NCBI GenBank assembly: GCA_019058015.1
Contig: JAHLWH010000137.1
Location: 1 to 28,754, forward strand
Origin: Promethearchaeota archaeon
Lineage (GTDB): Archaea; Asgardarchaeota; Lokiarchaeia; Sigyniarchaeales; SOKP01
DNA: 28,754 nt
Direction: 5' to 3'
In this document: positions 303 to 24,002 of the stretch, in pieces
Position numbering within the stretch: position 1 is the first letter of the stretch
Layout of the letters: every line of letters starts with the position of its first letter
The notes under the pieces: model-generated
Database searches by the model: none
What the model was told of the DNA's origin: nothing
Seen by the model: only the letters and a program-made list of their open reading frames with translations
Program-made: the position numbers and the translations under genes

Positions 303-1697
303 ATGGAAAAAACTGAAAAAGAATTATCACATGGTAAATTGGGTATGGTTTCTTATGGTTTCAATTCACTATCTAGAGAACTTCTTCGAATGGCTTTTAC
401 TGCGTGGGGTTTCTTTTTTTATGAGTCTGAAATTGGTTTAAACGTTTGGTTAATTGGGCTAGCATATGTTATATTCGCAATTTATAATATGTTTAATGAT
501 CCTTTTATTGGTTATTTAACAAATAAACCTTTTAAATTCACTAAAAAATGGGGTCGACGATTTCCTTGGATTTTAATTGGTGGTTTACCATGGGGACTTA
601 CTTATATTCTTATTTTTCTTCCGCCAACTACTGATCCAGTATCAGGCGCATGGATTCTATTTTTCTGGTTATTATTTACTACATGTCTATTTGACACATT
701 TCATTCATTATTTTTTGTAAATTTCATGTCTTTATTTCCAGATAAATATCGATCAGTTCAAGAGCGTCGAAAGGCTAGCGGTATATATATTATGATTGGG
801 GTTGTAGGTGTTGCTTTGGGAGCTATTCTACCACCTTTCTTTTTTGACTATGGAAATATACCTTCTTATGTATATCAAGGTCTTATCGTCTTCTTGATTA
901 CTTTGATAGGTTTTGTAATTGGTATACCAGGTGTTCGGGAGGATCAAGTTACTATTGACCTTTATTTATCTTCTCAAAAGGAAAAACGCGAACATGAATC
1001 GTTCTTTAAAAGTCTTAAAATAGCTATAAAACAAAAGCCATTTATTGTATTTATGGTACTATTTACCCTATATCAGTCCTTAGTAGAAATAATGCAAGCG
1101 TCAGTTTCCTATGTAGTACGTTATTCTTTAGAAATGCCAGAGACTGCCACTACAATGGTATTTGCTGGTTTCCTTATTGGAGTATTAATATCTGCACCTT
1201 TTTGGACACTTTATTCTCGTAGAGCAAAAAATAATAAGAAAGTAATGCTGATCTCATCGCTACTTTTAGCAGCTTTTACATTACCTCTCACATTCCTTAG
1301 AGATTATTGGTTAATAGTAATAAATATGATTATTTGGGGAACAGCACTTGGAGGCTTTTGGACAATGATTTTTCCTGTATCTTCAGATGTAATTGATAAT
1401 TCCGTAGTTCTAACAGGTAAACGTGAAGAGGGTTTATACACTGGTTTTCAACAGTTTTTTGGTCGATTAGGTATTGTTATCCAAGCTCTTACGTTTGCAA
1501 TAGTTCATGAACTTACTGGTTTTGTTGAAGGAGCAGCTACACAATCGCCCTTAGCAGTATGGGGAATACATCTTCATTTATCATTAATTCCGATGATATT
1601 AATTCTCATAGGAGCTTTTGTATTTTGGAAATGGTACAAATTAACTCCTGATAAAGTACAAGAGAATCAGATTAAAATCAAAGAAATGGGTTTATAA
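303..1697 (+). CDS. MFS transporter, glycoside-pentoside-hexuronide (GPH, MelB-like) family
   Basis: About 12 hydrophobic segments. Motifs 'YNMFNDPFIGYLT', 'KWGRRFPWIL' and 'SDVIDNSVVLTGKREEGLY' are typical of GPH symporters. ATG at 303 preferred over TTG at 291. Confidence 0.9.
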   Translation: MEKTEKELSHGKLGMVSYGFNSLSRELLRMAFTAWGFFFYESEIGLNVWLIGLAYVIFAIYNMFNDPFIGYLTNKPFKFTKKWGRRFPWILIGGLPWGLTYILIFLPPTTDPVSGAWILFFWLLFTTCLFDTFHSLFFVNFMSLFPDKYRSVQERRKASGIYIMIGVVGVALGAILPPFFFDYGNIPSYVYQGLIVFLITLIGFVIGIPGVREDQVTIDLYLSSQKEKREHESFFKSLKIAIKQKPFIVFMVLFTLYQSLVEIMQASVSYVVRYSLEMPETATTMVFAGFLIGVLISAPFWTLYSRRAKNNKKVMLISSLLLAAFTLPLTFLRDYWLIVINMIIWGTALGGFWTMIFPVSSDVIDNSVVLTGKREEGLYTGFQQFFGRLGIVIQALTFAIVHELTGFVEGAATQSPLAVWGIHLHLSLIPMILILIGAFVFWKWYKLTPDKVQENQIKIKEMGL

Positions 1698-1725
1698 AAC
1701 TTAAAAAATAGCAATTAATCTATTA

Positions 1726-1740
1726 TTTTCTTTTTTTTTT
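1726..1740 (+). terminator. Candidate archaeal oligo-T terminator of the MFS gene
   Basis: TTTTC followed by T10 about 30 nt after the stop codon. The background is AT-rich, so specificity is low. Confidence 0.4.
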
Positions 1741-1938
1741 ATATTAAAATCAATATTATTTCTAAAAAAGAAATTAAAGAAAAAATATTCAAAAAAAAAT
1801 AATTTTTTTGCCTTTGTTCCAGCAATCACTTAGGATAGAAAAGTTTAACTTTTGGATTTTTATATTTAACATGTTTAACAATTTTTTACTTAATTATCTT
1901 TTATCTCAAAAAAGTAAGGAGGAAATATAAGATTATTT

Positions 1939-6486: not shown

Positions 6487-6806
6487 AGTTTATTTCCTTC
6501 CTAATATGTTTTTAAAAGGATGCAGAAAAGATGAGAGGGTTAAAATGACTCTAGAACACAATATTTTCCTTTAATTGGCTTTTACTGAATTATCGTATCC
6601 AATAATGAATTTATGTACGTTAAAATAAACATACTAATTATTTAAGTATTATGTAAAACAGTAGAAATTACTTAAGAACTTGATTTTACAGATAATTTAG
6701 TATAAAAAATAAGCATAAAATTAATCATATAAAATAAATATTTTTTAAATTTAAAGACCTTAATTAAGGTTATTAACTAATATTGGGAAATTTAATCCTA
6801 AAAAAA

Positions 6807-8333
6807 TTATGTACCAGCAATTCTTTTAGGATAATGAGTTTGTGCCTTAAGATTCTCCTGAAATAAGTTATTAACCAATTCAAATCGAACATCTTTAAAT
6901 TTTTCATTATACCATAAATTGGTCAATTCATCTGGATCGTTCTTTCGATCAAATAAATCACCATGATTTGTTAAACCTTCATATGTTGTTAATTTATAAT
7001 CTTCAGTTACTAAGTGTCTTAATCTTGCTTCAAGAGTGCCAACTTCTTCATCATTTTCGATGAAAACACAGTCTCTAACTTTTTTATTTGGTTCTATTAA
7101 TAAATGAGTCATATCAAAACCTTGCATATCAGGAGGGTGATGGCGTTCTTTAATATTTAAGAGATTTAGAATGGTTTTTGGAATGTCGATGGAACTTATT
7201 AAAGATTCAGAGACTCCCGTTTTGGTCAAACCTGGTACTTTCCATATTAGAGGAAGATGTAATACACCATTATAAGGGCAAGGACCTTTAAATAATAAAC
7301 CATGATCTCCCATTAAATCACCGTGATCACTGCTATACATTACTATTGTATTATCTGCATAACCTAACTTCTTCAGTGTTGATAAAATTTCTCCTATACT
7401 ATAATCTATTAATGCAACAGACCCGTATGTTAAGGCTATAAATTTTCGTGCTTCCTCTTCATTAGTTTCTCGCAAGAACGCTCTAAAAAATGGTGGATTT
7501 TTTAAAAGAGGTCCCAAAAATTTATGGTTATATAAGTTTTTTGCATCGTTAAAATTCGGAGGAAGTTCAATCTCTTCTGGTTTGTACATATCATAATATT
7601 TTCCTGGAGGACATAAAGGATAGTGAGGATCTAAAAAAGAACAATGCAAATAGAAGGGTTTATCTCCATAATCTCCCCGGGCATGTCGTTCAAGGAAAGC
7701 AATAGTACGCTCTTTAATATATGTTGTACTATAAAGTTCTTCAGGGAAACCCTTATCACACCATAACGAGAAGTAATTGTCGATTCTCCTCCATTTCTTT
7801 TTTACAAATTCAGCGTGTTTCGGAGACCTTTTTTCCAACCAATTTAAATAATGTCCGACGCATATAGTACCATTACCCGTTGCGAATTCTACCTCTTGGA
7901 ATCCATAATATGGGAGAGGGAAGTTCTCCTTTACAGGATTATTACCAGATTCCTCTGCTAACCAGTCGCCCCAGCATTCTGCCGATTTTGTTTTCCTTCG
8001 ATATGGAGGTGACATAAATTGAAAATGTGTTTTTCCCATAACCGCTGTACGCCAACCTCTTTTCATTAATGTTTGAGCAATATTTGGAAGGTCTTCCCGT
8101 AGATTAATCCCATTACTCCTTACACCATGCACATTTGGATATAATCCCGTATGTAATGTTGCTCTGTTGGGCATACAAATAGGAGCAGTGCAAAAGTAAT
8201 TCGAAAACCTAACGCCTTCTTTTGCAAACTTATCCAGATTTGGTGTTTTTAAAATCGGATTTCCATAGCAACTTAAATGATCTACTCGATGGGCATCGGA
8301 TATTATGAATAATACATTCATTTTTTCACTCAT
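6807..8333 (-). CDS. Cys-type (formylglycine-dependent) sulfatase, arylsulfatase/choline-sulfatase-like
   Basis: NVLFIISDAHR, the CxPxR motif 'ICMPNRATLHTG', GKTH, DPHYP and SSDHGDLMGDHGLLFKG. No signal peptide. ATG at 8333 preferred over TTG at 8342. Confidence 0.92.
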   Translation of the reverse strand: MSEKMNVLFIISDAHRVDHLSCYGNPILKTPNLDKFAKEGVRFSNYFCTAPICMPNRATLHTGLYPNVHGVRSNGINLREDLPNIAQTLMKRGWRTAVMGKTHFQFMSPPYRRKTKSAECWGDWLAEESGNNPVKENFPLPYYGFQEVEFATGNGTICVGHYLNWLEKRSPKHAEFVKKKWRRIDNYFSLWCDKGFPEELYSTTYIKERTIAFLERHARGDYGDKPFYLHCSFLDPHYPLCPPGKYYDMYKPEEIELPPNFNDAKNLYNHKFLGPLLKNPPFFRAFLRETNEEEARKFIALTYGSVALIDYSIGEILSTLKKLGYADNTIVMYSSDHGDLMGDHGLLFKGPCPYNGVLHLPLIWKVPGLTKTGVSESLISSIDIPKTILNLLNIKERHHPPDMQGFDMTHLLIEPNKKVRDCVFIENDEEVGTLEARLRHLVTEDYKLTTYEGLTNHGDLFDRKNDPDELTNLWYNEKFKDVRFELVNNLFQENLKAQTHYPKRIAGT

Positions 8334-9670: not shown

Positions 9671-11389
9671 ATGAATTATAAGAAGCAGATTGCTATTTTA
9701 TTATCTGATTTTATAAAGGAAATTACTCCGCAAGAAGTGGAAAAACTAATTGAACTTCCTCCTAAAGATATTGATTTTGATTATTCATTTCCTGTTTTTA
9801 TTTTATCAAAAGTGAAAAAGAAATCACCTCAACAAATTGCTTTAGATTTGGAAATAAAATTAAAGAAACCAGAATATATATCTAAAATTAAAGCAATCGG
9901 ACCATATCTAAATTTTAAAATTGATAGGTTTGTTTTAGCAAAATATATTTTAACTGAAATTTTTAATAGAGGGGAGTTATTTGGCAAAATTGATTCTAAA
10001 GATATTGAAAAACCTCTTAGGATCGTAATTGAATATCCTGCCCCAAATACAAATAAGCCTTTACATCTTGGCCATATTAGAAATGTTTTTATTGGTCAAT
10101 CAGTTTCAAACCTTCTAAGATTTATTGCCAATGAAATTTTTGAAGTTAACTTATATAATGATAAAGGTATTCATATTTGTAAAAGCATGCTTGCATACCA
10201 AAAGTGGGGGAATAATAAAAAACCAGAAGATGAAAATATTAAGTCTGATCATTTTGTTGGTAAGTATTATGTTTTATTCAATGAAAAATTGAAAAATGAC
10301 CCTAATTTGAATCAAGAAGCTGAGAATATGCTTCATAAATGGGAAAATAATGATCCAAAGACACGTACTCTTTGGAAAATGATGAATAATTGGGCAAAAC
10401 AAGGATTTGATGAATCATTTGATAAATTAGGGGTTAAATTTAGCCAAGAATATTTTGAATCTGATATTTATAAAAAAGGAAAAGAAATAATAAATACTGT
10501 AATTGACGGTAAAAATTTTGAAAAAGTTGAAAATAATGCAGTTATTGCTAGATTAGAGAATTATAATCTCCCCGATAAAGTTCTACTTCGCGGAGATGGC
10601 ACATCACTATATATTACACAAGATATATATTTAGCTAAAAAGAAAAAAGAAGATTTTAATTACGATAAATCTATTTATGTTGTTGGAAATGAACAGAATA
10701 CTTATTTTAAGCAATTATTTAAAGTATTAGAGCTTTTAGGTTTTTCAGAGGAGATGATTCATTTATCTTATGGTATGGTATATTTACCAGAAGGCAAAAT
10801 GAAAAGTAGAGAAGGTCAAACTGTCGATGCAGATGATATTATTGAGAAAGTGTATAACTTAGCTAAAAAAGAAATAGAAAAGCGATATATTGATTTAAAT
10901 GAAGAGGAAATAGAAAAGCGATCAAGAATCATAGGACAAGCTGCTTTAAGATTCTATATTTTGAAGTATGATCCAAAAAAGGACTTTACCTATTATCCTG
11001 ATAAAAGTATCTCATTTGAAGGAGATACTGGTCCCTACATTCAATATGTTTATGCAAGAATTCAATCCATTATTAACAAAACTGAAGTGGAGATTGATAT
11101 AGATATCGATTTTTCACTCTTAAAACATAAAACCGAAAAAGAATTAATATTTAATCTATATCAATTTCCAGAAATTCTTAAAGAAGCTGCAGAGTCCTAT
11201 AAGCCACATTTAATGTGTCAATATCTTTTAAACCTATCTCAACACCTCAACTCTTTTTATGTTAGTTGTCAAGTCATTTCTAGTGAAATTAATTTACAGA
11301 AAGCTCGATTATTATTGATTAGATGCACTCAGATTGTAATAAAAATTGGTCTGAACCTACTTGGTATAGAAATTTTAGAACAAATGTAA
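9671..11389 (+). CDS. argS: Arginine--tRNA ligase
   Basis: HIGH-like motif 'PNTNKPLHLGHIRN', 'LRGDGTSLYITQD', 'GKMKSREG', 'FEGDTGPYIQYVYARIQSI', and C-terminal 'LGIEILEQM'. Confidence 0.97.
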   Translation: MNYKKQIAILLSDFIKEITPQEVEKLIELPPKDIDFDYSFPVFILSKVKKKSPQQIALDLEIKLKKPEYISKIKAIGPYLNFKIDRFVLAKYILTEIFNRGELFGKIDSKDIEKPLRIVIEYPAPNTNKPLHLGHIRNVFIGQSVSNLLRFIANEIFEVNLYNDKGIHICKSMLAYQKWGNNKKPEDENIKSDHFVGKYYVLFNEKLKNDPNLNQEAENMLHKWENNDPKTRTLWKMMNNWAKQGFDESFDKLGVKFSQEYFESDIYKKGKEIINTVIDGKNFEKVENNAVIARLENYNLPDKVLLRGDGTSLYITQDIYLAKKKKEDFNYDKSIYVVGNEQNTYFKQLFKVLELLGFSEEMIHLSYGMVYLPEGKMKSREGQTVDADDIIEKVYNLAKKEIEKRYIDLNEEEIEKRSRIIGQAALRFYILKYDPKKDFTYYPDKSISFEGDTGPYIQYVYARIQSIINKTEVEIDIDIDFSLLKHKTEKELIFNLYQFPEILKEAAESYKPHLMCQYLLNLSQHLNSFYVSCQVISSEINLQKARLLLIRCTQIVIKIGLNLLGIEILEQM

Positions 11390-11411
11390 TTTTCGAAAGG
11401 GCGTTGATTTA

Positions 11412-12314
11412 ATGAAATCTTTTTTTGATTTTAAAGGACAATGTGATGAAAATACTGAGTTCATCATTTTTGGAATTCCATGGGATTCTCTCAGTTCATT
11501 GGAAAATGCCGATTCAGCGCTAACTCCTAAAAATTTACGTGAAATTAGTTATGAACTTGCAAGAACTACTGAAATTGGATTAGATATTACTTCATTTAAT
11601 GCTTGTGATCTGGGAGATATTGAAATTGATTCATCAGATACCAGTAAAAATATCAAAAAAATTGAGGAATTTCTCAAAAAAATTGAATATTTTAATAAAA
11701 AAGTGGTGTTGGTGATGATCGGCGGTGATCACTTTTGCACATTTCCTGTAGTAAAATTTATCGGTGACATGGTTGAGAAAAAAGAAGACTTTGGAGTTTT
11801 AATTTTTGATGCCCATGTAGATTTTTACGACACTTGGGAGGGAAGCAAATTTTCCCATACTACGGTCTCTCATCGATTATATGATTTAGAATATATTAAT
11901 AATGAAAATTTATTCATTGTTGGAACGCGAGATATTGATAATATTGAACTCGAAAATGCAAAAAATGAAAATCTCCGTTATCTTAATGCATACAAGATAG
12001 ATGAGATTGGGATCCAACAAACTACAACTGAAATTATGCAATTTTTCAAAAAATATTCAAAAAAACCGAAATTGTATGTATCAATTGATATTGATGTTTT
12101 AGATCCCTCTATTGCTCCTGGAACAGGTTATGCAATAGCTGGTGGTATCAGTTATAGAAATTTATGGAAAATAATAAGAAATTTAGTAAAAGAATTTGAA
12201 ATAATTGGATTTGATTTAGTTGAGGTATCGCCGGGCCTTGATTTACCAAATAAAATGACTCAAATTTGTGCTACTAAACTAATTGTTGAATTTATGAGTT
12301 TTATTAAAAGTTAA
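11412..12314 (+). CDS. speB: Agmatinase (ureohydrolase family)
   Basis: GGDH, DAHVD, SH(T)T, 'SIDIDVLDPSIAPGTG' and 'GFDLVEVSP' are Mn-ureohydrolase motifs. Confidence 0.88.
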   Translation: MKSFFDFKGQCDENTEFIIFGIPWDSLSSLENADSALTPKNLREISYELARTTEIGLDITSFNACDLGDIEIDSSDTSKNIKKIEEFLKKIEYFNKKVVLVMIGGDHFCTFPVVKFIGDMVEKKEDFGVLIFDAHVDFYDTWEGSKFSHTTVSHRLYDLEYINNENLFIVGTRDIDNIELENAKNENLRYLNAYKIDEIGIQQTTTEIMQFFKKYSKKPKLYVSIDIDVLDPSIAPGTGYAIAGGISYRNLWKIIRNLVKEFEIIGFDLVEVSPGLDLPNKMTQICATKLIVEFMSFIKS

Positions 12315-12325
12315 AATTAATTTGA

Positions 12326-13276
12326 ATGATTATAATGAAAGAAGATGATTTAAAAAATTTTAAACCAGTAGAGCAGATTGATATCTCTCAAAATGATAAT
12401 ATTAATAAAATCATTAGGTCTTTAATTAATACGGGATTTAATGCGAAACGTTTAGCTTTAACGTGTGAAATTTATGAGAAGATGATAAAAGATAAAGAAT
12501 GTATAAAATTTTTTGGACTTGCAGGTGCAATGGTTCCGGTTGGTATGCAAAAAGTTATTCACGATTTTATAGAAGAGGACTTTCTCGATATACTTGTGAC
12601 AACCGGTGCAAATATAACTCATGATGTCGCTGAGACTCTAGGATTCCACCATCTGCAAGGCGATTTTAAATTAGAAAATATTGATGATGCAAAATTATTT
12701 GATAAAAAAGTTAATCGAATATATGATGTGTTTTTACCTAATAATGTTTATGAGGGAATTGAAGATTTTATTTCAAATTTAAACATCCCTAACGATGAGA
12801 TGCCGGTAAGTGAATTTTTAAAATTTCTAGGTGAACATCTACCAAACAATCCTAATTCGATCTTAAAAATTTGCGCTAAAAAAAATATACCAATTTTCTG
12901 TCCTGCTTTTACTGATTGTGGTTTAGCACTTCAATTAGGTTTCCACAATCAAAAACTCAATTTAAACCATTTTAAAGATATGCTAAAAATGGTCAATTTA
13001 GCATGGGATGCCAAAAAAGCCGGTGTTTTTATTGTTGGTGGAGGTGTTCCGAAAAATTTTATTATGCAATCCCTCCAATTTTCTCCTAATTCTGCCTCTT
13101 ACGCCATTCAAATAACAATGGATCGACCAGAACCAGGAGGACTAAGTGGAGCAACATTAAGTGAGGCAGTTTCATGGGGAAAGGTTAATAAAGAAGCATT
13201 ATACACAACTTTAATTTGTGACGCAACTATTGCTCTTCCCTTAATTTTTTCATATTTAAAAAATTTAAAAAAATGA
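12326..13276 (+). CDS. dys: Deoxyhypusine synthase
   Basis: TGFNA, LVTTGANITHD, NRIYDV, PIFCPAFTD, GGGVPKNF, 'GGLSGATLSEAVSWGK' (catalytic Lys) and DATIALP. Confidence 0.95.
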   Translation: MIIMKEDDLKNFKPVEQIDISQNDNINKIIRSLINTGFNAKRLALTCEIYEKMIKDKECIKFFGLAGAMVPVGMQKVIHDFIEEDFLDILVTTGANITHDVAETLGFHHLQGDFKLENIDDAKLFDKKVNRIYDVFLPNNVYEGIEDFISNLNIPNDEMPVSEFLKFLGEHLPNNPNSILKICAKKNIPIFCPAFTDCGLALQLGFHNQKLNLNHFKDMLKMVNLAWDAKKAGVFIVGGGVPKNFIMQSLQFSPNSASYAIQITMDRPEPGGLSGATLSEAVSWGKVNKEALYTTLICDATIALPLIFSYLKNLKK

Positions 13277-13729
13277 ACCTTTTAATCGTTGATCTACGGT
13301 TTTTCCTTCTTCTCCAAATAAATTATCAATTTCTTGCTTGAATTCTTGAAATTCTGATACATGCGAAAGATTTTTATTTTTATACTTCTCCTTAAATAAC
13401 AATAATAGCTTCTTTAATTCAGGAACAATTCTCTCCTTTACTTTATCTATATGTTTTACTTTATCCATTATTATATAAGAAATAATTAATTCAGAAACAT
13501 CCTCACCATCCGCAGATAAAATTTTATCTTGAGTGAATATTAATGATTTCTTTTTACCTTCTATATATTCAAGACTATGAGAAAATGCCGCCTCTGAAAA
13601 GTTAATTATAGCCGTTAAAAGCCCCGATCTTAAGTCTTTATCTTTGATATTCGTCCCAAAATCATGATACTGTGAATTTATTATAGTAAAACCCCTAAAT
13701 AAAATTCCACATTCGCGAATTAAAACCAT
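13265..13729 (-). CDS. Longin-like (sensor/adaptor) domain protein
   Basis: Two N-terminal beta strands, helix 'DKDLRSGLLTAIINFSEAAF', further strands, then helices 'LKKLLLLFKEKY' and 'SEFQEFKQEIDNLF'. This matches the pattern of Asgard longin-like proteins. ATG at 13729 has a GGAG SD. Confidence 0.65.
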   Translation of the reverse strand: MVLIRECGILFRGFTIINSQYHDFGTNIKDKDLRSGLLTAIINFSEAAFSHSLEYIEGKKKSLIFTQDKILSADGEDVSELIISYIIMDKVKHIDKVKERIVPELKKLLLLFKEKYKNKNLSHVSEFQEFKQEIDNLFGEEGKTVDQRLKGSFF

Positions 13730-13814
13730 ATAATCTCCCAATTAAAAATTCTTAAAAATTCGCAGTATCTATAGAATAATTCTCTCTTCACATATTTTAA
13801 CTTTTTTATAGTTT

Positions 13815-14282
13815 TTAGAGATTTATCTCGAGCAATTTACCGCACGATTTACAATGCTTCCAAGTTCTACTAATTGAGGCTCCACAATATGGGCAAAACC
13901 ATCCTTCTCTAATTTCTATATTGTTTTGATGTGATGGGGTTTGCTCATATGGAAGACGTGGTATTCCCTCACCTTTTTTAGGACCAAAAGGTTCATATTC
14001 TTTATTTGGGTCCTCTGTGCATTTAAAAAGGCATTTAGGGCAATATTTCTTTGGTATTAGGCCGTAATATATGAGGTACGGATTTATAATCATAAATAAA
14101 TATAAAAAGAACATGAGATTGAAAAACCACGTTAAAATCAATAGAATCGTAAGAACAGTAGAAATTATAAATATTATTCCGACAAAAATTCCAAATACTA
14201 TTGTATTAAATTCCGACCTTGTTGGAAAACAATTCATACAACAATTTTTACAGAATTTCATTTTATTAATATCTTGAGGCAA
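13815..14282 (-). CDS. Membrane protein: split CxxC-hydrophobic-CxxC (LITAF-like) module plus C-terminal zinc ribbon
   Basis: CKNC, about 48 hydrophobic residues, then CPKC; later CPYCG...CKSCG. TTG start with AGGAG SD upstream. Confidence 0.7.
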   Translation of the reverse strand: MPQDINKMKFCKNCCMNCFPTRSEFNTIVFGIFVGIIFIISTVLTILLILTWFFNLMFFLYLFMIINPYLIYYGLIPKKYCPKCLFKCTEDPNKEYEPFGPKKGEGIPRLPYEQTPSHQNNIEIREGWFCPYCGASISRTWKHCKSCGKLLEINL

Positions 14283-14452
14283 TAAGTAATCAAGCTCCTT
14301 TTTCTTTGACTATAAATTATTAATATTTTAATATAGATAAAAAAATGGTTTTTAAAACTACTCAAAATTAAATAAAAAGATAACTACGATAAATTCATAT
14401 ACTTAATAAATTAATTATTTAAAATAAGCAAAAGAAATCACGTGAAAACAAT

Positions 14453-14983
14453 TTGAGTGAAGAGGAAAAATCTTATGTCTTTAAAATCGTGGTTGTAGGG
14501 GATGGCGCGGTAGGGAAAACCTCTTTAATTAAGCAATATACTGAAGGGAATTTCTTTAAAGACTATATTAAAACAATTGGCGCACAATTCTCAAAATATA
14601 TTGAGGAAATTGAGAATGTACGTGTAAAGCTTTTTTTCTGGGACATTGCAGGTCAAAGCGAATTTTCTTTTATGAGACCAACTTTCTATAAAGGTGCTAA
14701 AGCAGTCATTTTAGTATATTCATTAATAGATTCACAGAGTTTTAATAGTATAAAAATTTGGCATGAAGATATCAAAAAATATTGTGGAGATAAACCAATT
14801 ATAATTTTTGGTAATAAGGTTGATCTAGTTAATGAAAATGAATTAGATGATTCCAAAATCAATACTTTGAAAGATGAGATTGGTTTTATTAAATATTACA
14901 AAACTTCTGCTAAAACAGGTAAGAATGTGTATGATGCTTTCAGATGCATCATAAAAGAATTATACGATTCCGTAAAAGAATAA
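14453..14983 (+). CDS. Rab/Ras-like small GTPase (GTPase 1)
   Basis: G1 GDGAVGKTS, G2 TIG, G3 WDIAGQ, G4 NKVD, G5 SAK. No C-terminal Cys. Confidence 0.95.
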   Translation: MSEEEKSYVFKIVVVGDGAVGKTSLIKQYTEGNFFKDYIKTIGAQFSKYIEEIENVRVKLFFWDIAGQSEFSFMRPTFYKGAKAVILVYSLIDSQSFNSIKIWHEDIKKYCGDKPIIIFGNKVDLVNENELDDSKINTLKDEIGFIKYYKTSAKTGKNVYDAFRCIIKELYDSVKE

Positions 14984-15026
14984 GCAGATTCATCAATTGA
15001 AATAAATAACATTATTTTTAAATGAA

Positions 15027-15326
15027 ATGACTTCTACCATTAGGAAGGAAAATAAAAACCTTGAAATTCTATTCTTTTCCTCAAATTATTGTGAACCTTG
15101 TAAAGAAGTTGAAAAATTAATACATAAAATAAATCTATCGATGTTTGGAAAAAAATTAAAGATTCAAAAAATCAGCATTGACATAAAAAGTCCAATAATA
15201 AAGAAATATAAAATTACAAGCGTGCCATCTTTAGTAATCGCAGGAAAAAAATTAACTAGGAACGTAGATATGGATGATATTATTGACGCAATATTACAAG
15301 GATTTATATCTTCTGTAGATATTTGA
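15027..15326 (+). CDS. Thioredoxin-like protein (CEPC)
   Basis: FFSSNYCEPCKEV CxxC motif and 'YKITSVPSLVI' cis-Pro motif; 99 aa. Confidence 0.85.
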   Translation: MTSTIRKENKNLEILFFSSNYCEPCKEVEKLIHKINLSMFGKKLKIQKISIDIKSPIIKKYKITSVPSLVIAGKKLTRNVDMDDIIDAILQGFISSVDI

Positions 15327-15359
15327 TTAAAAATTTAAAAAAAATAAGGAAAATTTATC

Positions 15360-15854
15360 ATGAATCGTTCTCTATTAAATGATTTATTAAAGAAGATGAA
15401 ATCTAATCTTCTTGAAGGAAAAAGTATTGGGAATTTGAAAATAGGTGCTTTATTAGCTCTGGGTAGTCAATTGGAGGCTGTTTTTTATTATTTAGGTCAT
15501 GAATTGGGACTATTATTTGATGTTCCTAAAATCTCTGATCTTACTAAAATTCCTGAAGAACTTGCTAAAATAATTAAAAAATACAATTTAGGTGAAATTG
15601 ATATAACTGGATACTCACAAGAGCAGATTTCACAGGAACATCTATCTGTTAAATTAAGAAGTTGTCTTACTTGTAAAGATTTGTTATCTTCAAAAATATC
15701 TGCAGAGGAAACATTTTGTAGTTTTGAAGCAGGATTACTAGCTGCTTTAGTTGAGAAAATGAGTGATCTTCAATGTTTTGCTCAAGAAGAGAAGTGTAGT
15801 CTGCAAACTGACCAATTATATTGTGAATTTATCATTGTATATCAAAAAGATTAA
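15360..15854 (+). CDS. V4R (4-vinyl reductase)/Bet3-like domain protein
   Basis: 'EAVFYYLGHELG', 'KYNLGEI', 'RSCLTC', 'TFCSFEAGLLAALVE' and 'EEKCSLQTDQLYCEFII' follow the canonical V4R pattern. Confidence 0.88.
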   Translation: MNRSLLNDLLKKMKSNLLEGKSIGNLKIGALLALGSQLEAVFYYLGHELGLLFDVPKISDLTKIPEELAKIIKKYNLGEIDITGYSQEQISQEHLSVKLRSCLTCKDLLSSKISAEETFCSFEAGLLAALVEKMSDLQCFAQEEKCSLQTDQLYCEFIIVYQKD

Positions 15855-15968
15855 ATTATTCATATTTGAAAAAGTAAGCACTATTATCATTCATATTGCA
15901 ATAAAAATATTAACTAAAAGAAATTTTAAAGAATTAATTGATTAAAAATAAAAAATTATTATAGAGAG

Positions 15969-15977
15969 TTTTATATA
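15969..15977 (+). promoter_or_regulatory. Candidate TATA box for GTPase 2
   Basis: TTTTATATA preceded by purine-rich AGAGAG in the 190-bp gap before 16045. Confidence 0.35.
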
Positions 15978-16044
15978 CTTTTTATACATAAATCTTATTT
16001 AATAATAAGTTCATAGAAAAATAGATTAGAGGTAAATTAAGAAT

Positions 16045-16545
16045 ATGAGCGATTATATACTCAAGATTTGTCTATTGGGAGAAAAAAAAGTCGGAAAAAC
16101 CACATTGGTGTACAGGTTCATTGAAAATAAATTCCGTACCGATTTTCGAAGTACTTTAGGCGTAAATTTATTAAAAAAGACAGTTAAAATCGGAGATGCA
16201 ACTGTTGTGACTCAAATATGGGACTTAGGTGGTCAGGAACCATTTAAAAAACTTAGAAAACTTTATTTGGAGGGAGCAGAAGGTGCTTTATTACTTTTTG
16301 ATGTGACAAATCAACAATCATTTATTAAATTAGGAGAGTGGATTTCAAGTTTTAGAGAAGTTCACGGGAATAAACCAATAGTCTTAATAGGAAATAAAAT
16401 GGACCTTAAAGAAAATATTATAATTGATCAAAGTCAAGCTGAGAGGTATGCAAATGAAAACAATTTGAGTCTTGTACTAACCAGTGCAAAAACTGGGGAA
16501 AATGTTGAAAAATCGTTTGTGGATTTATTAAAACGCATTATTTAA
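16045..16545 (+). CDS. Rab/Ras-like small GTPase (GTPase 2)
   Basis: G1 GEKKVGKTT, G2 STLG, G3 WDLGGQE, G4 NKMD, G5 SAK. No prenylation motif. Confidence 0.95.
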   Translation: MSDYILKICLLGEKKVGKTTLVYRFIENKFRTDFRSTLGVNLLKKTVKIGDATVVTQIWDLGGQEPFKKLRKLYLEGAEGALLLFDVTNQQSFIKLGEWISSFREVHGNKPIVLIGNKMDLKENIIIDQSQAERYANENNLSLVLTSAKTGENVEKSFVDLLKRII

Positions 16546-22303: not shown

Positions 22304-23932
22304 TTGGAAATAAAGTTGTCTGATGTTAATGAAATCTTGGATAAAGCAAAAAATCTATTTGAAGAAGATAAAATCAATAAAGGATTATCAATTGTTTTAA
22401 AACTTTTGGAATCAGAAAGTTCTTTTGAGGAATCCGGTTCTCAAATTATGGAAATTCTAACTGATATGGGAAAAAAGAATCCAGAAATTGTTTTCCCATA
22501 TATTACTAAATACTATAAATCTATTAAAATATCAAAAATAAGGATGAGAATTATTTCTTTATTTAATATTTTTATCCAAGAACAGATAAATACTGAGGGA
22601 GAAATCGATGAAGTAAATCCTTGGTTTTTATTAATTCATACTTTTAAAAAATCTAAAGATCAAAGGGTATTAAATTTTGCTCTGAAGCAAGTAATTGATA
22701 TTTTCAATAAAGATAAAGAGGATTTTATAAAAAATTATACTTGGATTGCAGAGATCCTTGGAAATAAAACAATTTTAAATTCGGAATATGATAATCAAGA
22801 GGAAATTTATGGCTTTTTTGAAAATTTAGTTAATTCAGAACCAAAATTTATTGATGTTATCCTTCCAGTAATAAAGAAAATGTTTAAGAGTGAAATCCTT
22901 GCATCACGAATTGAGGCAATTAAGGCAATCGGGTGTTTAAGCTTATATGATGTTTCCAAATTCAAAGGATTTATCTTTAAAATTCAAAAGTTAATTTCAA
23001 TAAAAAATATTCAATTTAGAAGCTATATTATTCAAACTCTAGGTAGATTTGGATTCTCTGATTTTAATATATTCAAAGCCTTACTCCCGAATATAATTAG
23101 AGTCTCTTTTTATCCTGATTTAATACCAGGATTAGGAAAAGTGTTAGCACTACTTATTCAGGATCACTCAGATGACATCTTGAATGAAATTAAAGTGCAA
23201 TATAATGAGAAAAAATTAAAAGAAGGATTAATAAGCCTGATCCAAAAATTAATCAAAACTTCAGCTAATAAAGTAGATGAAAAATTTATCGATTCTTTAA
23301 TTGAAATAGAAAAAAATAAAAAAATAATTCAAAAACTTGGAGATATCAAAAGCTCAATTAAAACTTATCAAGATTCCTATAGAATATGTCCAATTTGTTT
23401 TACAAACAATAAATTAACTTCAAAATTCTGTGCAAAGGAAGGATTCAAATTAGTTCCAAAGGATGTAAAAATTCTTGAAGAAATAGAGGAAGAAGTAGAA
23501 AAGGAAGTAGAAGTTAAAGAAGAGGAAGAAATAAAGAAAGAGGAAGTAAAAAAGGAAGAAGAAGTTAAAGAAGAAGTAAAAGAGGAAGTAGAAGAGATAG
23601 AAGCAGAGAAGAAAGAAGAAATTAAAGAAAAGGTTGATATTGAGGAGAAAGAAGTAGAAAAGGAAGAAGAAAAAGAAGTGAAGGAGGAAGAAGTAAACGA
23701 GGAAATAAAAGAGATAGAAGCAGAGATGAAAGGAGAAATCAAAAAAAAGGTTGAAATTGAGGAGAAAGAAGTAGAAAAGGAAGAAGAAATCAAAGAAGAG
23801 GAAAAAGTGGAGGAAGAAGAAAAAAAAGTGAAGGAGGAAGAGGTAAAAGAGGAAAAAGAAGTCAATGAAGAGGAAGAAGTAAAAGCGGAAGAAGAAGTTA
23901 AAGAAGAGAAAGAAATTGAGGAAAAAAAGTAA
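22304..23932 (+). CDS. HEAT/ARM-repeat protein with degenerate zinc ribbon and long Glu/Lys/Val-rich tail
   Basis: Helical repeats such as 'ILPVIKKMFKSEILASRIEAIKAIGCL' and 'IQKLISIKNIQFRSYIIQTLGRFG'; 'CPICFTNNKLTSKFCAKEG'; about 150-aa E/K/V low-complexity C-terminus. Confidence 0.8.
   Translation: MEIKLSDVNEILDKAKNLFEEDKINKGLSIVLKLLESESSFEESGSQIMEILTDMGKKNPEIVFPYITKYYKSIKISKIRMRIISLFNIFIQEQINTEGEIDEVNPWFLLIHTFKKSKDQRVLNFALKQVIDIFNKDKEDFIKNYTWIAEILGNKTILNSEYDNQEEIYGFFENLVNSEPKFIDVILPVIKKMFKSEILASRIEAIKAIGCLSLYDVSKFKGFIFKIQKLISIKNIQFRSYIIQTLGRFGFSDFNIFKALLPNIIRVSFYPDLIPGLGKVLALLIQDHSDDILNEIKVQYNEKKLKEGLISLIQKLIKTSANKVDEKFIDSLIEIEKNKKIIQKLGDIKSSIKTYQDSYRICPICFTNNKLTSKFCAKEGFKLVPKDVKILEEIEEEVEKEVEVKEEEEIKKEEVKKEEEVKEEVKEEVEEIEAEKKEEIKEKVDIEEKEVEKEEEKEVKEEEVNEEIKEIEAEMKGEIKKKVEIEEKEVEKEEEIKEEEKVEEEEKKVKEEEVKEEKEVNEEEEVKAEEEVKEEKEIEEKK
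23594..23788 (+). repeat. Imperfect ~78-bp duplication (117-bp period) within the acidic tail
   Basis: GAGATAGAAGCAGAG...AAGGTTGA.ATTGAGGAGAAAGAAGTAGAAAAGGAAGAAGAA at 23594 and 23711 (EIEAEKKEEIKEKVDIEEKEVEKEEE versus EIEAEMKGEIKKKVEIEEKEVEKEEE). Confidence 0.85.
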
Positions 23933-24002
23933 GTAATAAAAGATTTTCGGGAATAAATTCTATTATAATAAAGATTAAATCATTTTCATGGGATGTTACT
24001 TA

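Follow-up and report, generated by a model that had tools for sequence, protein, structure and literature searches.

A GTPase-thioredoxin-V4R gene unit of Asgard archaea: a proposed redox-gated switch, not a likely forerunner of TRAPP

Do a longin gene, a V4R gene and two Rab-like GTPase genes that share one archaeal locus make up an early TRAPP complex? The locus belongs to a Promethearchaeota archaeon (Lokiarchaeia; Sigyniarchaeales; SOKP01) and lies in a window of 28,754 nucleotides, the whole stretch of DNA that was analysed (GenBank assembly GCA_019058015.1, contig JAHLWH010000137.1, positions 1 to 28,754). An earlier note on this DNA described six consecutive genes around a divergent 170-bp intergenic region and read them as a possible compact TRAPP-like exchange factor (GEF) with its GTPase substrates. 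The six genes are real, being open reading frames that do not overlap, and the intergenic region was confirmed at 14283-14452; the cluster is better read, if tentatively, as a GTPase switch under redox control than as an early form of TRAPP.

Two of the genes are on the reverse strand: that of a longin-domain protein (13265..13729, 154 aa), which begins at the Met codon at 13729 as in its homologues (the open reading frame as listed, 13265-13741, has an upstream TTG at 13741 as a possible start), and that of a membrane zinc-ribbon protein (13815..14282), divergent from GTPase1. The AT-rich intergenic region that separates it from GTPase1 presumably contains the promoters of both genes. On the forward strand are the Rab-like small GTPase GTPase1 (14453..14983, 176 aa), a small thioredoxin with the active-site motif CEPC (15027..15326, 99 aa), a V4R/Bet3-fold protein (15360..15854, 164 aa) and a second Rab-like small GTPase, GTPase2 (16045..16545, 166 aa). 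The 190-bp spacer ahead of GTPase2 (15855..16044), which varies from 83 to 587 bp in relatives, may give room for a separate GTPase2 promoter, judging from its length and its AT-rich, TATA-like runs.

Both GTPase assignments were borne out: GTPase1 and GTPase2 match Pfam Ras (4e-46 and 3.7e-47), and the best 60 matches listed for each among PDB sequences are all Rabs (top: Rab23, Rab21 and Rab1A for GTPase1; Rab4B, a Thorarchaeota Rab and Rab5A for GTPase2). The two are 32% identical to each other. GTPase1 has the G1-G5 motifs and the DxxGQ glutamine, and its sequence lacks a C-terminal cysteine. The cysteine-bearing NKCD and P-loop variants that are redox-sensitive in eukaryotic GTPases are present in neither sequence. 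The thioredoxin is likewise as claimed, with a PF00085 score of 34.5 bits (cut-off 23.5) and a CxPC motif that is invariant in 79 sequences.

The V4R protein scores 22.8 bits against Pfam V4R and 24.2 bits against DUF2507, in each case under the cut-off; its best NCBIfam match is the C-terminal (V4R) part of MsvR (1.4e-9), and Pfam Bet3 is not among its matches at E <= 1. It consists of V4R only, with no match to a helix-turn-helix (HTH) domain. The fold assignment is supported by an AF2 model (pLDDT 87.6), which matches the V4R protein MJ1460 (Foldseek 3.5e-6; VIA Z 13.8, rmsd 2.7, 109 residues aligned), the V4R structures of PoxR, MopR and DmpR (Z 12.8-13.6) and Bet3/TRAPPC3/TRAPPC6 (Z 10-12.2). 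The margin by which prokaryotic V4R sensors match it better than Bet3 does is small, about 1.6 Z. Across 42 sequences drawn from two families of one order, here called f1 and f2, four cysteines (C120, C139, C146 and C155) never vary; the clade of the source genome has an additional CxxC (C101, C104) and a five-residue insert. By analogy and by their position in the secondary structure, the four probably form one site, which most likely binds zinc as the sites of Thorarchaeota TRAPPC3 and PoxR do. Orthologues of the V4R protein were found in 64 of 68 genomes of f1, in all seven of f2 and, among the Asgard genomes searched at E <= 1e-10, in no other family.

The conserved unit is smaller than six genes: it comprises GTPase1, thioredoxin and V4R, usually with GTPase2 alongside. 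Thioredoxin immediately precedes V4R in all 80 species-level loci, and GTPase1 immediately precedes thioredoxin in all 74 evaluable ones, so that the trio is unbroken; the gap between GTPase1 and thioredoxin was measured in 62 loci and does not exceed 5 bp in 36 of them. Of 69 evaluable loci, 68 have GTPase2 no more than 2.5 kb from V4R and 51 have it adjacent and co-directional; in some genera it is inverted and beyond the TBP gene. With 58 Ras-family matches in the 3.84-Mb source genome, a single adjoining GTPase in a single genome could be due to chance, but the arrangement is kept across species and the neighbourhood is therefore not a chance one. In f1, a conserved order by itself says little, because housekeeping genes share in the synteny: ArgRS, agmatinase, DHS and TBP are as syntenic as the longin gene, and acylphosphatase and DegT-type aminotransferase genes also keep their place in most loci. 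In six loci of f2, thioredoxin adjoins V4R (6/6) and GTPase1 adjoins thioredoxin (5/5 evaluable), and no further gene of the region is shared with f1.

Thioredoxin, which the earlier note cast as a redox side input, is instead the most constant partner of V4R, adjoining it in every locus, and elsewhere in the Asgard archaea homologous thioredoxin domains are joined to V4R domains in fusion proteins. An N-terminal thioredoxin domain followed by tandem V4R domains was found in four of 20 long V4R relatives scanned, all four with Asgard source labels, and the thioredoxin domains of these fusions are homologous to the small thioredoxin of the cluster. Such fusions are present in 84 of 301 Asgard genomes but absent from all 68 genomes of f1 and all seven of f2, the two families with split genes; fused and split genes thus have a complementary distribution. 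Outside these two families, none of 30 Asgard fusion loci has a Rab-like GTPase within 1.5 kb, and none of the 20 long relatives carries a GTPase domain, which confines the GTPase link to the two families. Signalling outputs fused to the scanned relatives were GGDEF (two), SpoIIE (one), a sigma-54 activator (one) and HTH (two).

The longin protein has no Pfam match, and its sixteen homologues are 108 to 156 aa long. The fold claimed for it nevertheless stood up: the AF2 model, of moderate confidence (pLDDT 66), has the order beta-beta-alpha-beta-beta-beta-alpha-alpha, and all 50 of the VIA matches listed are longin-domain proteins, led by Sec22b (Z 11.1, rmsd 3.0, 117 aligned) and including the TRAPP longins synbindin (Z 10.3), sedlin (Z 9.8) and a Bet5 chain (Z 9.3). 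Of the 56 f1 loci that could be evaluated, 54 have the gene upstream of the cluster; its distance from GTPase1 is 1.1-3.6 kb in 60 of 62 related loci carrying both genes. An aminopeptidase-like and/or CinA-like gene, sometimes a transposase or transporter, intervenes in the eight loci inspected, and in most other genera housekeeping genes part the two. Near the f2 trio no close longin orthologue was found in four genomes, two of which had no match at E <= 0.001; the remaining matches are on different contigs or 120 kb away. In the source genus both longin paralogues are divergent to Ras-like GTPase genes, the paralogous one adjoining a GTPase in 4/4 genomes of that genus and in 0/20 loci of other genera. 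We regard the longin as a neighbour peculiar to the lineage and outside the conserved core, with a putative role in the GTPase-thioredoxin-V4R system; of the gene order expected to be conserved in relatives, the part from GTPase1 to V4R held and the longin's place close to GTPase1 did not.

The membrane protein was called a LITAF-like zinc-knuckle protein. It is indeed a zinc-ribbon protein (C-terminal PF13248, 2.4e-6; PF13240, 7e-4) with about 48 hydrophobic residues, or two transmembrane helices, between an N-terminal CxxC and a CPxC, and its cysteine pairs are conserved in 38 sequences; membership of the LITAF family was not sustained (zf-LITAF-like E 0.16, 12.5 bits against a cut-off of 23.8). 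It was detected in the same position in 27 of 56 evaluable loci and is a candidate membrane anchor.

A complex model of two V4R chains and GTPase1 suggests that the V4R protein grips GTPase1 directly, in line with the interaction proposed earlier. Its score, a model confidence, was 0.71 against 0.00 for the best of three controls; the mark was reached by 58 of 80 solved complexes and two of 110 mismatched pairs in a calibration unlike this model in alignments (here custom-made) and in stoichiometry (here 2+1). Solved TRAPP-Rab complexes hold Bet3-fold and Rab chains, so part of the signal could be memory of them. Model runs share at least 81% of contacts, with partner pLDDT of at least 81. The V4R body alone makes the contact, with no longin in the model, and meets GTPase1 on the face formed by switch I, the interswitch and switch II. 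On the V4R side the predicted surface includes the YY..H helix, the CF strand, C139 and residues beside two other invariant cysteines; on the GTPase1 side it covers F46, W63 and F78, which we take to be the positions of the hydrophobic triad read by Rab effectors. Residues conserved at 90% or more make up 16 of 22 interface positions and 51 of 142 others in V4R, and 17 of 21 and 71 of 155, respectively, in GTPase1.

The reading that we favour, at a probability of about one half, is that a thioredoxin-serviced V4R sensor is coupled to a Rab-like GTPase as a redox-gated switch. V4R would bind the switch face of GTPase1 directly, and the dedicated thioredoxin would keep the V4R cysteine site reduced or reset it. 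The hold of V4R on GTPase1 would change upon oxidation, or when a ligand occupies the V4R cavity, so that a Rab-like molecular switch would respond to redox state; in it, V4R may be an exchange factor, an inhibitor or an effector. The divergently encoded zinc-ribbon protein may serve as a membrane tether.

The cysteine site could also be a purely structural zinc site and thioredoxin could have another client. On this possible but clearly less probable account, V4R binds a ligand and serves GTPase1 as an adaptor or effector, the signal is a lipid or some hydrophobic small molecule that occupies the V4R cavity, and thioredoxin is a co-transcribed general reductase or folding helper, with no redox gating. 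The V4R domains of PoxR, MopR and DmpR, which are among the structural matches, bind phenols and carry zinc; the Thorarchaeota TRAPPC3 report notes that Bet3 binds palmitate and proposes ligand binding for Asgard TRAPPC3/V4R proteins (PMC10933270). The varied outputs fused to V4R relatives and the modelled contact across F46, W63 and F78 also agree with an adaptor. However, a general reductase is hard to square with a fusion found in 84 of 301 Asgard genomes, and an invariant CxPC next to V4R in every locus and the position of C139 within the modelled interface also favour redox gating.

The exchange factor of the earlier note, in which longin and V4R would load GTP on both GTPases, with the zinc-ribbon protein as anchor and thioredoxin as redox input, now appears improbable. 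It gains from the confirmed longin fold and its TRAPP matches, from the Bet3-type matches of the V4R model, from the modelled V4R site, which is where exchange factors bind, and from a longin gene that is usually upstream in f1 and, in the source genus, has a paralogue also divergent to a Ras-like gene. Against it, the longin is off the core, at a distance filled in the loci inspected by unrelated genes, in a region where housekeeping genes hold their order as well; f2 retains the trio but no close longin orthologue near it; the paralogous pairing is peculiar to the source genus; there is a single Cys4-type V4R gene with a single longin gene and no Pfam Bet3 match; and the V4R body makes the modelled contact unaided. 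That the genes have no joint function and are neighbours only through stable regional synteny is very improbable: the housekeeping genes that keep their places and the abundance of Ras-family genes fit it, but the trio alone persists in f2, intergenic gaps are very short, thioredoxin-V4R fusions exist, and the complex model passed its controls.

Among known systems, MsvR of Methanosarcina acetivorans and Methanothermobacter thermautotrophicus resembles the cluster in its V4R cysteines and its reduction by thioredoxin: in the published accounts, V4R-domain cysteines render DNA binding redox-sensitive (PMC3729527) and the oxidised protein is reduced by the thioredoxin system (PMC7278568). The spacing of C120-C146-C155 (26, 9) is similar to that of C206-C232-C240 in MaMsvR (26, 8), as positions compared without alignment. 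MsvR has an N-terminal helix-turn-helix and a DNA-binding output, whereas the cluster protein is a V4R domain of 164 aa, its thioredoxin is encoded next door and a Rab-like GTPase is its proposed output. Other Asgard V4R/Bet3-fold proteins of about 155-165 aa are Thorarchaeota TRAPPC3 (PDB 7yh3, 7yh2), described as a homodimer with Zn bound through four cysteines, and the TRAPPC3/V4R proteins predicted in MK-D1 (PMC10933270; Tran, Akil, Senju & Robinson 2024). Against Thorarchaeota TRAPPC3 the V4R model reaches VIA Z 12.2 over 132 aligned residues (rmsd 3.0) and Z 11.4, with just 11-13% identity. The orthogroup of the cluster protein was found in two families of one order, with no member in 225 other Asgard genomes at E <= 1e-10. 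The eukaryotic TRAPP core (Bet3/Trs33/Trs31 with the longins Bet5/Trs23/Trs20), the GEF for Ypt1/Rab1, likewise combines a Bet3-type fold and longins with Rab-like GTPases, but has several paralogous subunits where the cluster has one V4R and one longin gene, the latter outside the conserved core, and the cluster V4R has a Cys4 site and thioredoxin as an obligate partner. TRAPP holds Rab mainly by its longin subunits and the Bet3 tail, whereas the contact predicted here is through the V4R body itself. Prokaryotic operons of the MglA-MglB type also place a Ras-superfamily GTPase gene beside that of a small non-enzymatic switch-face binder; their partner has a roadblock fold, whereas that of the cluster has a V4R fold, with a thioredoxin gene inserted between.

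Six consecutive genes, as the earlier note on this DNA had claimed, are present as open reading frames at the positions that it proposed: a minus-strand pair encoding the longin (13265-13741) and the zinc-ribbon membrane protein (13815-14282), and four plus-strand genes encoding GTPase1 (14453-14983), the thioredoxin (Trx, 15027-15326), the V4R protein (15360-15854) and GTPase2 (16045-16545), the two groups being parted by a 170-bp AT-rich spacer. They are flanked by housekeeping genes, namely arginyl-tRNA synthetase (ArgRS), an agmatinase-like protein and deoxyhypusine synthase (Pfam DS, 1.2e-92) upstream, and TBP (Pfam, 1.1e-56) downstream. The three upstream genes form a co-directional run (window 9671-13276) that is kept in most of 80 related loci, and the agmatinase-deoxyhypusine synthase pairing may reflect the archaeal hypusine pathway. 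Another gene of the window (22304-23932, plus strand) encodes a protein of 542 aa, whose N-terminal part resembles helical repeats and which has a zinc-ribbon-like CxxC...C motif; the extreme GC and AT skew of 23001-24000 is due to its tail, some 150 residues rich in Glu and Lys. An Rfam search of the window gave no match.

The identities that the note had proposed for the two Rab-like GTPases, the CxxC thioredoxin, the V4R protein and the longin, on whose fold it had staked its claim, are borne out by the domain and structure comparisons that follow; its LITAF-like label for the membrane protein is not. GTPase1 and GTPase2 belong to the Ras family (Pfam Ras, 4e-46 and 3.7e-47, respectively), and the 60 best PDB sequence matches of each are all Rabs, the closest of these being Rab23, Rab21 and Rab1A for GTPase1 and Rab4B, a Thorarchaeota Rab and Rab5A for GTPase2. 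GxxxxGKT (P-loop), DxxGQ, NKxD and SAK motifs are found in both translations, so that each protein has a Ras-superfamily G domain with motifs G1-G5, most similar to Rabs. Whereas the G domain and its motifs are shared with Rabs, the C-terminal prenylation cysteine of Rabs is absent from both translations, which stop shortly after the G domain; the proteins are therefore called Rab-like rather than prenylated Rabs. The two are 32% identical to each other. Asgard archaea encode dozens of Rab-like GTPases, and the genome to which the window belongs has 58 Ras-family matches. The 99-aa thioredoxin is a member of its family (PF00085, 34.5 bits, cut-off 23.5) with the active-site motif CEPC, the CxPC columns being at least 98% conserved among 79 sequences.

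A Pfam scan of the 154-aa longin protein gave no match, and a PDB sequence search with it returned nothing meaningful (best E 0.26). Its AF2 model, of moderate confidence (pLDDT 66), has the strand and helix order of the longin fold, beta-beta-alpha-beta-beta-beta-alpha(-alpha). Foldseek alone was weak (best E 0.069), and the fold was settled by structure comparison with VIA, in which Sec22b was the best match (Z 11.1, rmsd 3.0, 117 aligned) and longin-domain proteins made up 50 of the 50 matches listed, including VAMP7 (Z 10.9), AP sigma chains, synbindin (10.3), Fuzzy, sedlin, Mon1-Ccz1 and a Lokiarchaeota longin. A 94%-identical homologue is annotated by one source as a FUZ/MON1/HPS1 longin protein. 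The 155-aa membrane protein has a C-terminal zinc ribbon (Pfam, 2.4e-6) and about 48 hydrophobic residues flanked by an N-terminal CxxC and by CPxC. This layout resembles LITAF in outline only: the zf-LITAF-like match is confined to residues 128-152 of the C-terminal ribbon, at E 0.16 and 12.5 bits against a cut-off of 23.8.

The 164-aa V4R protein scores 22.8 bits against Pfam V4R (PF02830), below the cut-off of 31, and likewise just under the cut-off for DUF2507; most of its orthologues carry precomputed PF02830 and/or PF10702 assignments. No Bet3-family Pfam entry was among its matches at E <=1, and a PDB sequence search with the protein alone found nothing meaningful (best E 0.69). A profile search matched the MJ1460 V4R protein at E 0.0023, and NCBIfam MsvR matched at 1.4e-9 over MsvR positions 119-236 (38 bits, against a cut-off of 220). 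The AF2 model (pLDDT 87.6) gave 58 Foldseek matches at E <=0.001, the best being MJ1460 V4R (2osd, 3.5e-6), Bet3/TRAPPC3 chains and Thorarchaeota TRAPPC3. In VIA it matched MJ1460 (2oso) with Z 13.8 (rmsd 2.7, 109 aligned), the sensor domains of PoxR, MopR and DmpR with Z 12.8-13.6, and Bet3/TRAPPC6-family and Thor-TRAPPC3 chains with Z 10-12.2 (for example 2c0j_B of the Bet3 family, Z 12.2, rmsd 3.7, 131 aligned). The V4R-Bet3-H-NOX fold is thus recovered by both structure comparisons, and the protein is, as judged from its model, a member of the V4R superfamily slightly nearer to prokaryotic sensors than to Bet3. Four of its cysteines, C120, C139, C146 and C155, are invariant in 24 and in 42 orthologues; in the model, C120 begins helix 121-135, C139 and C146 stand at either end of strand 139-145, and strand 154-161 contains C155. 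An extra CxxC (C101 and C104; residues 100-105, window 15657-15674) is present in the window's clade where most orthologues have H-S-S-I, and could be a second target of the thioredoxin. The same clade has a five-residue insert at residues 84-88.

Conservation of the region was assessed around V4R orthologues, at 20 relative loci with 7-kb flanks and at 80 species-level loci with 9-kb flanks, the latter being the best 80 of 124 confirmed relatives. For some of the 80 contigs the NCBI labels (Hod-, Hermod-, Thor- and Odinarchaeota) conflict with the family assignment, and these labels were not relied on. Gene order around V4R is very stable in both sets. Among the best 80 of 124 relatives, Trx is directly upstream of V4R in 80/80 loci and GTPase1 is directly upstream of Trx in all 74 loci with enough sequence, the GTPase1-Trx gap being 5 bp or less in 36 of the 62 measured. 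GTPase2 lies within 2.5 kb downstream in 68/69 of these loci and is co-directional and adjacent in 51/69; in the remaining loci it is inverted, beyond TBP. The longin gene is upstream in 54 of 56 evaluable loci of the same set, and the zinc-ribbon gene was found in 27 of 56. Within the family f1, the whole stretch from ArgRS to a DegT-type gene is syntenic, and the position of the longin alone therefore says little. The distance from longin to GTPase1 is 1.1-3.6 kb in 60 of 62 loci and about 0.7 kb only in the window and one congener; the eight loci inspected have an aminopeptidase-like and/or CinA-like gene between the two, sometimes with a transporter or a TnpB-like transposase. All six genes thus stand consecutively only in part of one genus.

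At the locus L051 of a congener, a 402-aa TnpB/IS200-IS605-like frame (6552-7760, minus strand) lies between the zinc-ribbon gene and GTPase1, and a methyltransferase-like frame lies between the longin and zinc-ribbon genes, both names being read from sequence; even among members of the genus, then, the run of six can be interrupted. A second longin paralogue is encoded in the window's genome at the locus L152 (G000:C216, 881-1276, minus strand), divergent to a Ras-like GTPase gene (1477-1923, plus strand). This paralogous pairing occurs in 4/4 genomes of the genus and in 0/20 loci of other genera; its GTPase gene is split into frames of 131 and 146 aa in the window's genome and is a single frame of about 340 aa in three congeners.

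Six loci of f2, the second family of the order, have Trx next to V4R in every case (6/6) and GTPase1 next to Trx in all five that could be evaluated, divergently in one of the five, and retain none of the other genes of the region. With the longin profile, f2 yielded no close orthologue: nothing at E <=0.001 in two of the four genomes, and elsewhere a best match of 2.9e-12 that lies on another contig. Of the conserved gene order on which the note had relied, GTPase1-Trx-V4R, usually with GTPase2, thus stands, and the longin drops out, being distant in most f1 loci and not part of the f2 cluster. The conserved unit is GTPase1-Trx-V4R, usually plus GTPase2.

The V4R orthogroup (E <=1e-10) was found in 64/68 f1 genomes and 7/7 f2 genomes, in none of 225 genomes of the other Asgard families sampled, and, in a smaller sample of relatives, in none of four f4 genomes. 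An exhaustive profile search returned 105 V4R relatives at E <=0.001, of which 20 (17 of at least 350 aa and three of 201-261 aa) were scanned for domains. In four of the 20, tandem V4R domains follow a thioredoxin at the N terminus, and nine have V4R only (with MetOD1 or DUF2507); other fusions were to GGDEF (two), HTH (two), SpoIIE (one), a sigma-54 activator (one) and part of DJ-1/PfpI (one), and none of the 20 has a GTPase domain. A word-based search for longer, fused homologues found none at E <=0.001, a negative that counts as weak evidence with a search of this type. The named members of the four Trx-V4R fusion clusters carry Asgard labels. Full-length relatives of a 480-aa Trx-V4R-V4R fusion are encoded by 84 of 301 Asgard genomes (for example 28/28 in family f9, 17/21 in f26, 11/11 in f31 and 10/11 in f18) but by 0/68 genomes of f1 and 0/7 of f2, and the fused and split forms are thus complementary. 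The window's Trx matches the N-terminal domain of the fusions in 29 of 30 loci, with E down to 2e-9. The link between Trx and V4R is older than the gene cluster. No match to either GTPase was found within 1.5 kb of the fusion genes (0/30 loci), which confines the association with a GTPase to the two Loki-type families. Seven of ten neighbours of fusion genes scanned at six loci had Pfam matches, all to varied housekeeping families, among them one peroxiredoxin.

A complex of two V4R copies with GTPase1, modelled from an alignment of 42 rows for each protein, supports binding of V4R to GTPase1. The model scored 0.71 and the best of three controls 0.00; the mark for this score is reached by 58 of 80 solved complexes and by 2 of 110 mismatched pairs, in a calibration that differs from the present input (custom alignments, 2+1 layout), and likeness to solved complexes can inflate the score. 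Contact agreement between runs was at least 81%, and partner pLDDT was at least 81. The confident contacts of GTPase1 fall in switch I and the strand after it (residues 41-46 and 48), in the interswitch (59, 61 and 63) and in switch II (66-81), and those of V4R are in helix 36-47 (the invariant YYLGHELG region), at 121 and 128, in strand 138-144, which includes C139, and in strand 158-162. Positions that are at least 90% conserved make up 16/22 of the V4R interface versus 51/142 elsewhere (Fisher p 0.002), and 17/21 of the GTPase1 interface versus 71/155 elsewhere. GTPase2 is identical to GTPase1 at 6 of 20 interface positions counted on their pairwise alignment, and may not engage V4R as GTPase1 does.

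Orthologues of GTPase1 in three related genomes have inserts of 29-31 nt that introduce stops or frameshifts inside conserved G-domain motifs (L056:8110-8138, plus strand; L041:8343-8373 and L041:8140-8168, both minus strand; L037:6234-6263, plus strand). One site, between the first strand and the P-loop, is common to two genomes. The minimum-energy folds of the two inserts at this site have a 3-nt bulge, a 4-bp helix and a bulge on the opposite strand, and the inferred junctions of both fall after the second bulge base; these inserts are therefore bulge-helix-bulge-like mini-introns. The sequence of the inner helix differs between the two genomes with pairing kept. A 2026 preprint on Asgard tRNA introns makes no mention of mRNA introns in the text searched. 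V4R orthologues of five related genomes (G009:C148:2903-3409, G115:C13:42562-43077, G195:C53:9870-10385, G312:C113:20628-21143 and G315:C273:6201-6716) are 30-39 nt longer than the usual 477 nt, with one in-frame TAA each, and may carry a mini-insert of the GTPase1 type.

Genes for Asgard GTPases generally lie outside operons with roadblock, longin or TRAPPC3 genes, according to a structural study (PMC10933270), and for that reason GTPase partners cannot be read from genome layout. The GTPase1-Trx-V4R cassette is an exception to this rule: it singles out a specific GTPase, a V4R/Bet3-fold protein and a thioredoxin that are likely to be partners, and their interface is predicted at residue level for V4R and GTPase1. 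Since all three are small soluble proteins (99-176 aa), the input to an Asgard Rab-like GTPase becomes directly testable, and the cassette is relevant to the question of whether the Bet3 fold and Rab-type GTPases had come together before the origin of eukaryotes. The literature searched on TRAPPC3, Asgard V4R and MsvR, supplements excluded, gave no account of a GTPase-thioredoxin-V4R cluster.

The cluster is best read as a V4R sensor with a partner GTPase: a dedicated thioredoxin would service the cysteine or zinc site of V4R, and the conserved face of V4R would hold the GTPase1 switch region. Redox gating, the signalling direction and any membrane role of the zinc-ribbon protein are putative. 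In Thor-TRAPPC3 (PMC10933270), a zinc held by four cysteines ties the sheet to a helix, and the modelled positions of C120, C139, C146 and C155 would be compatible with a site of this type. In MsvR, V4R cysteines render DNA binding redox-dependent (PMC3729527), and binding is restored by a thioredoxin system, according to a review (PMC7278568). Whereas MsvR has an N-terminal DNA-binding HTH fused to its V4R domain, the V4R protein here has no HTH Pfam domain; its four cysteines, invariant on alignment, may correspond in role to the conserved redox-active cysteines of MsvR.

The note had instead read the longin and V4R proteins as a TRAPP-like exchange factor within a compact proto-TRAPP/Rab switch. 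That reading is supported in part only: the longin fold stands in its favour and the resemblance of V4R to Bet3 may do so, but the paralogous subunits and the constant company of longin and V4R that mark TRAPP are lacking. The TRAPP core contains several paralogous Bet3-like subunits and a longin heterodimer, whereas the locus has one V4R and one longin gene, and the window's V4R as query found a single match in its own genome at E <=0.001 and no further V4R paralogues. Longin and Bet3-like parts are always together in TRAPP, whereas f2 keeps GTPase1-Trx-V4R, with two of its four genomes lacking a longin-profile match. It is rather improbable that the single V4R/Bet3-fold protein alone regulates a Lokiarchaeia Rab-like GTPase directly, as exchange factor or inhibitor, under thioredoxin gating. 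If it did, the Bet3-Rab relationship of eukaryotic TRAPP would have begun as a two-component pair of redox or ligand sensor and GTPase, to which the longin platform was a later addition.
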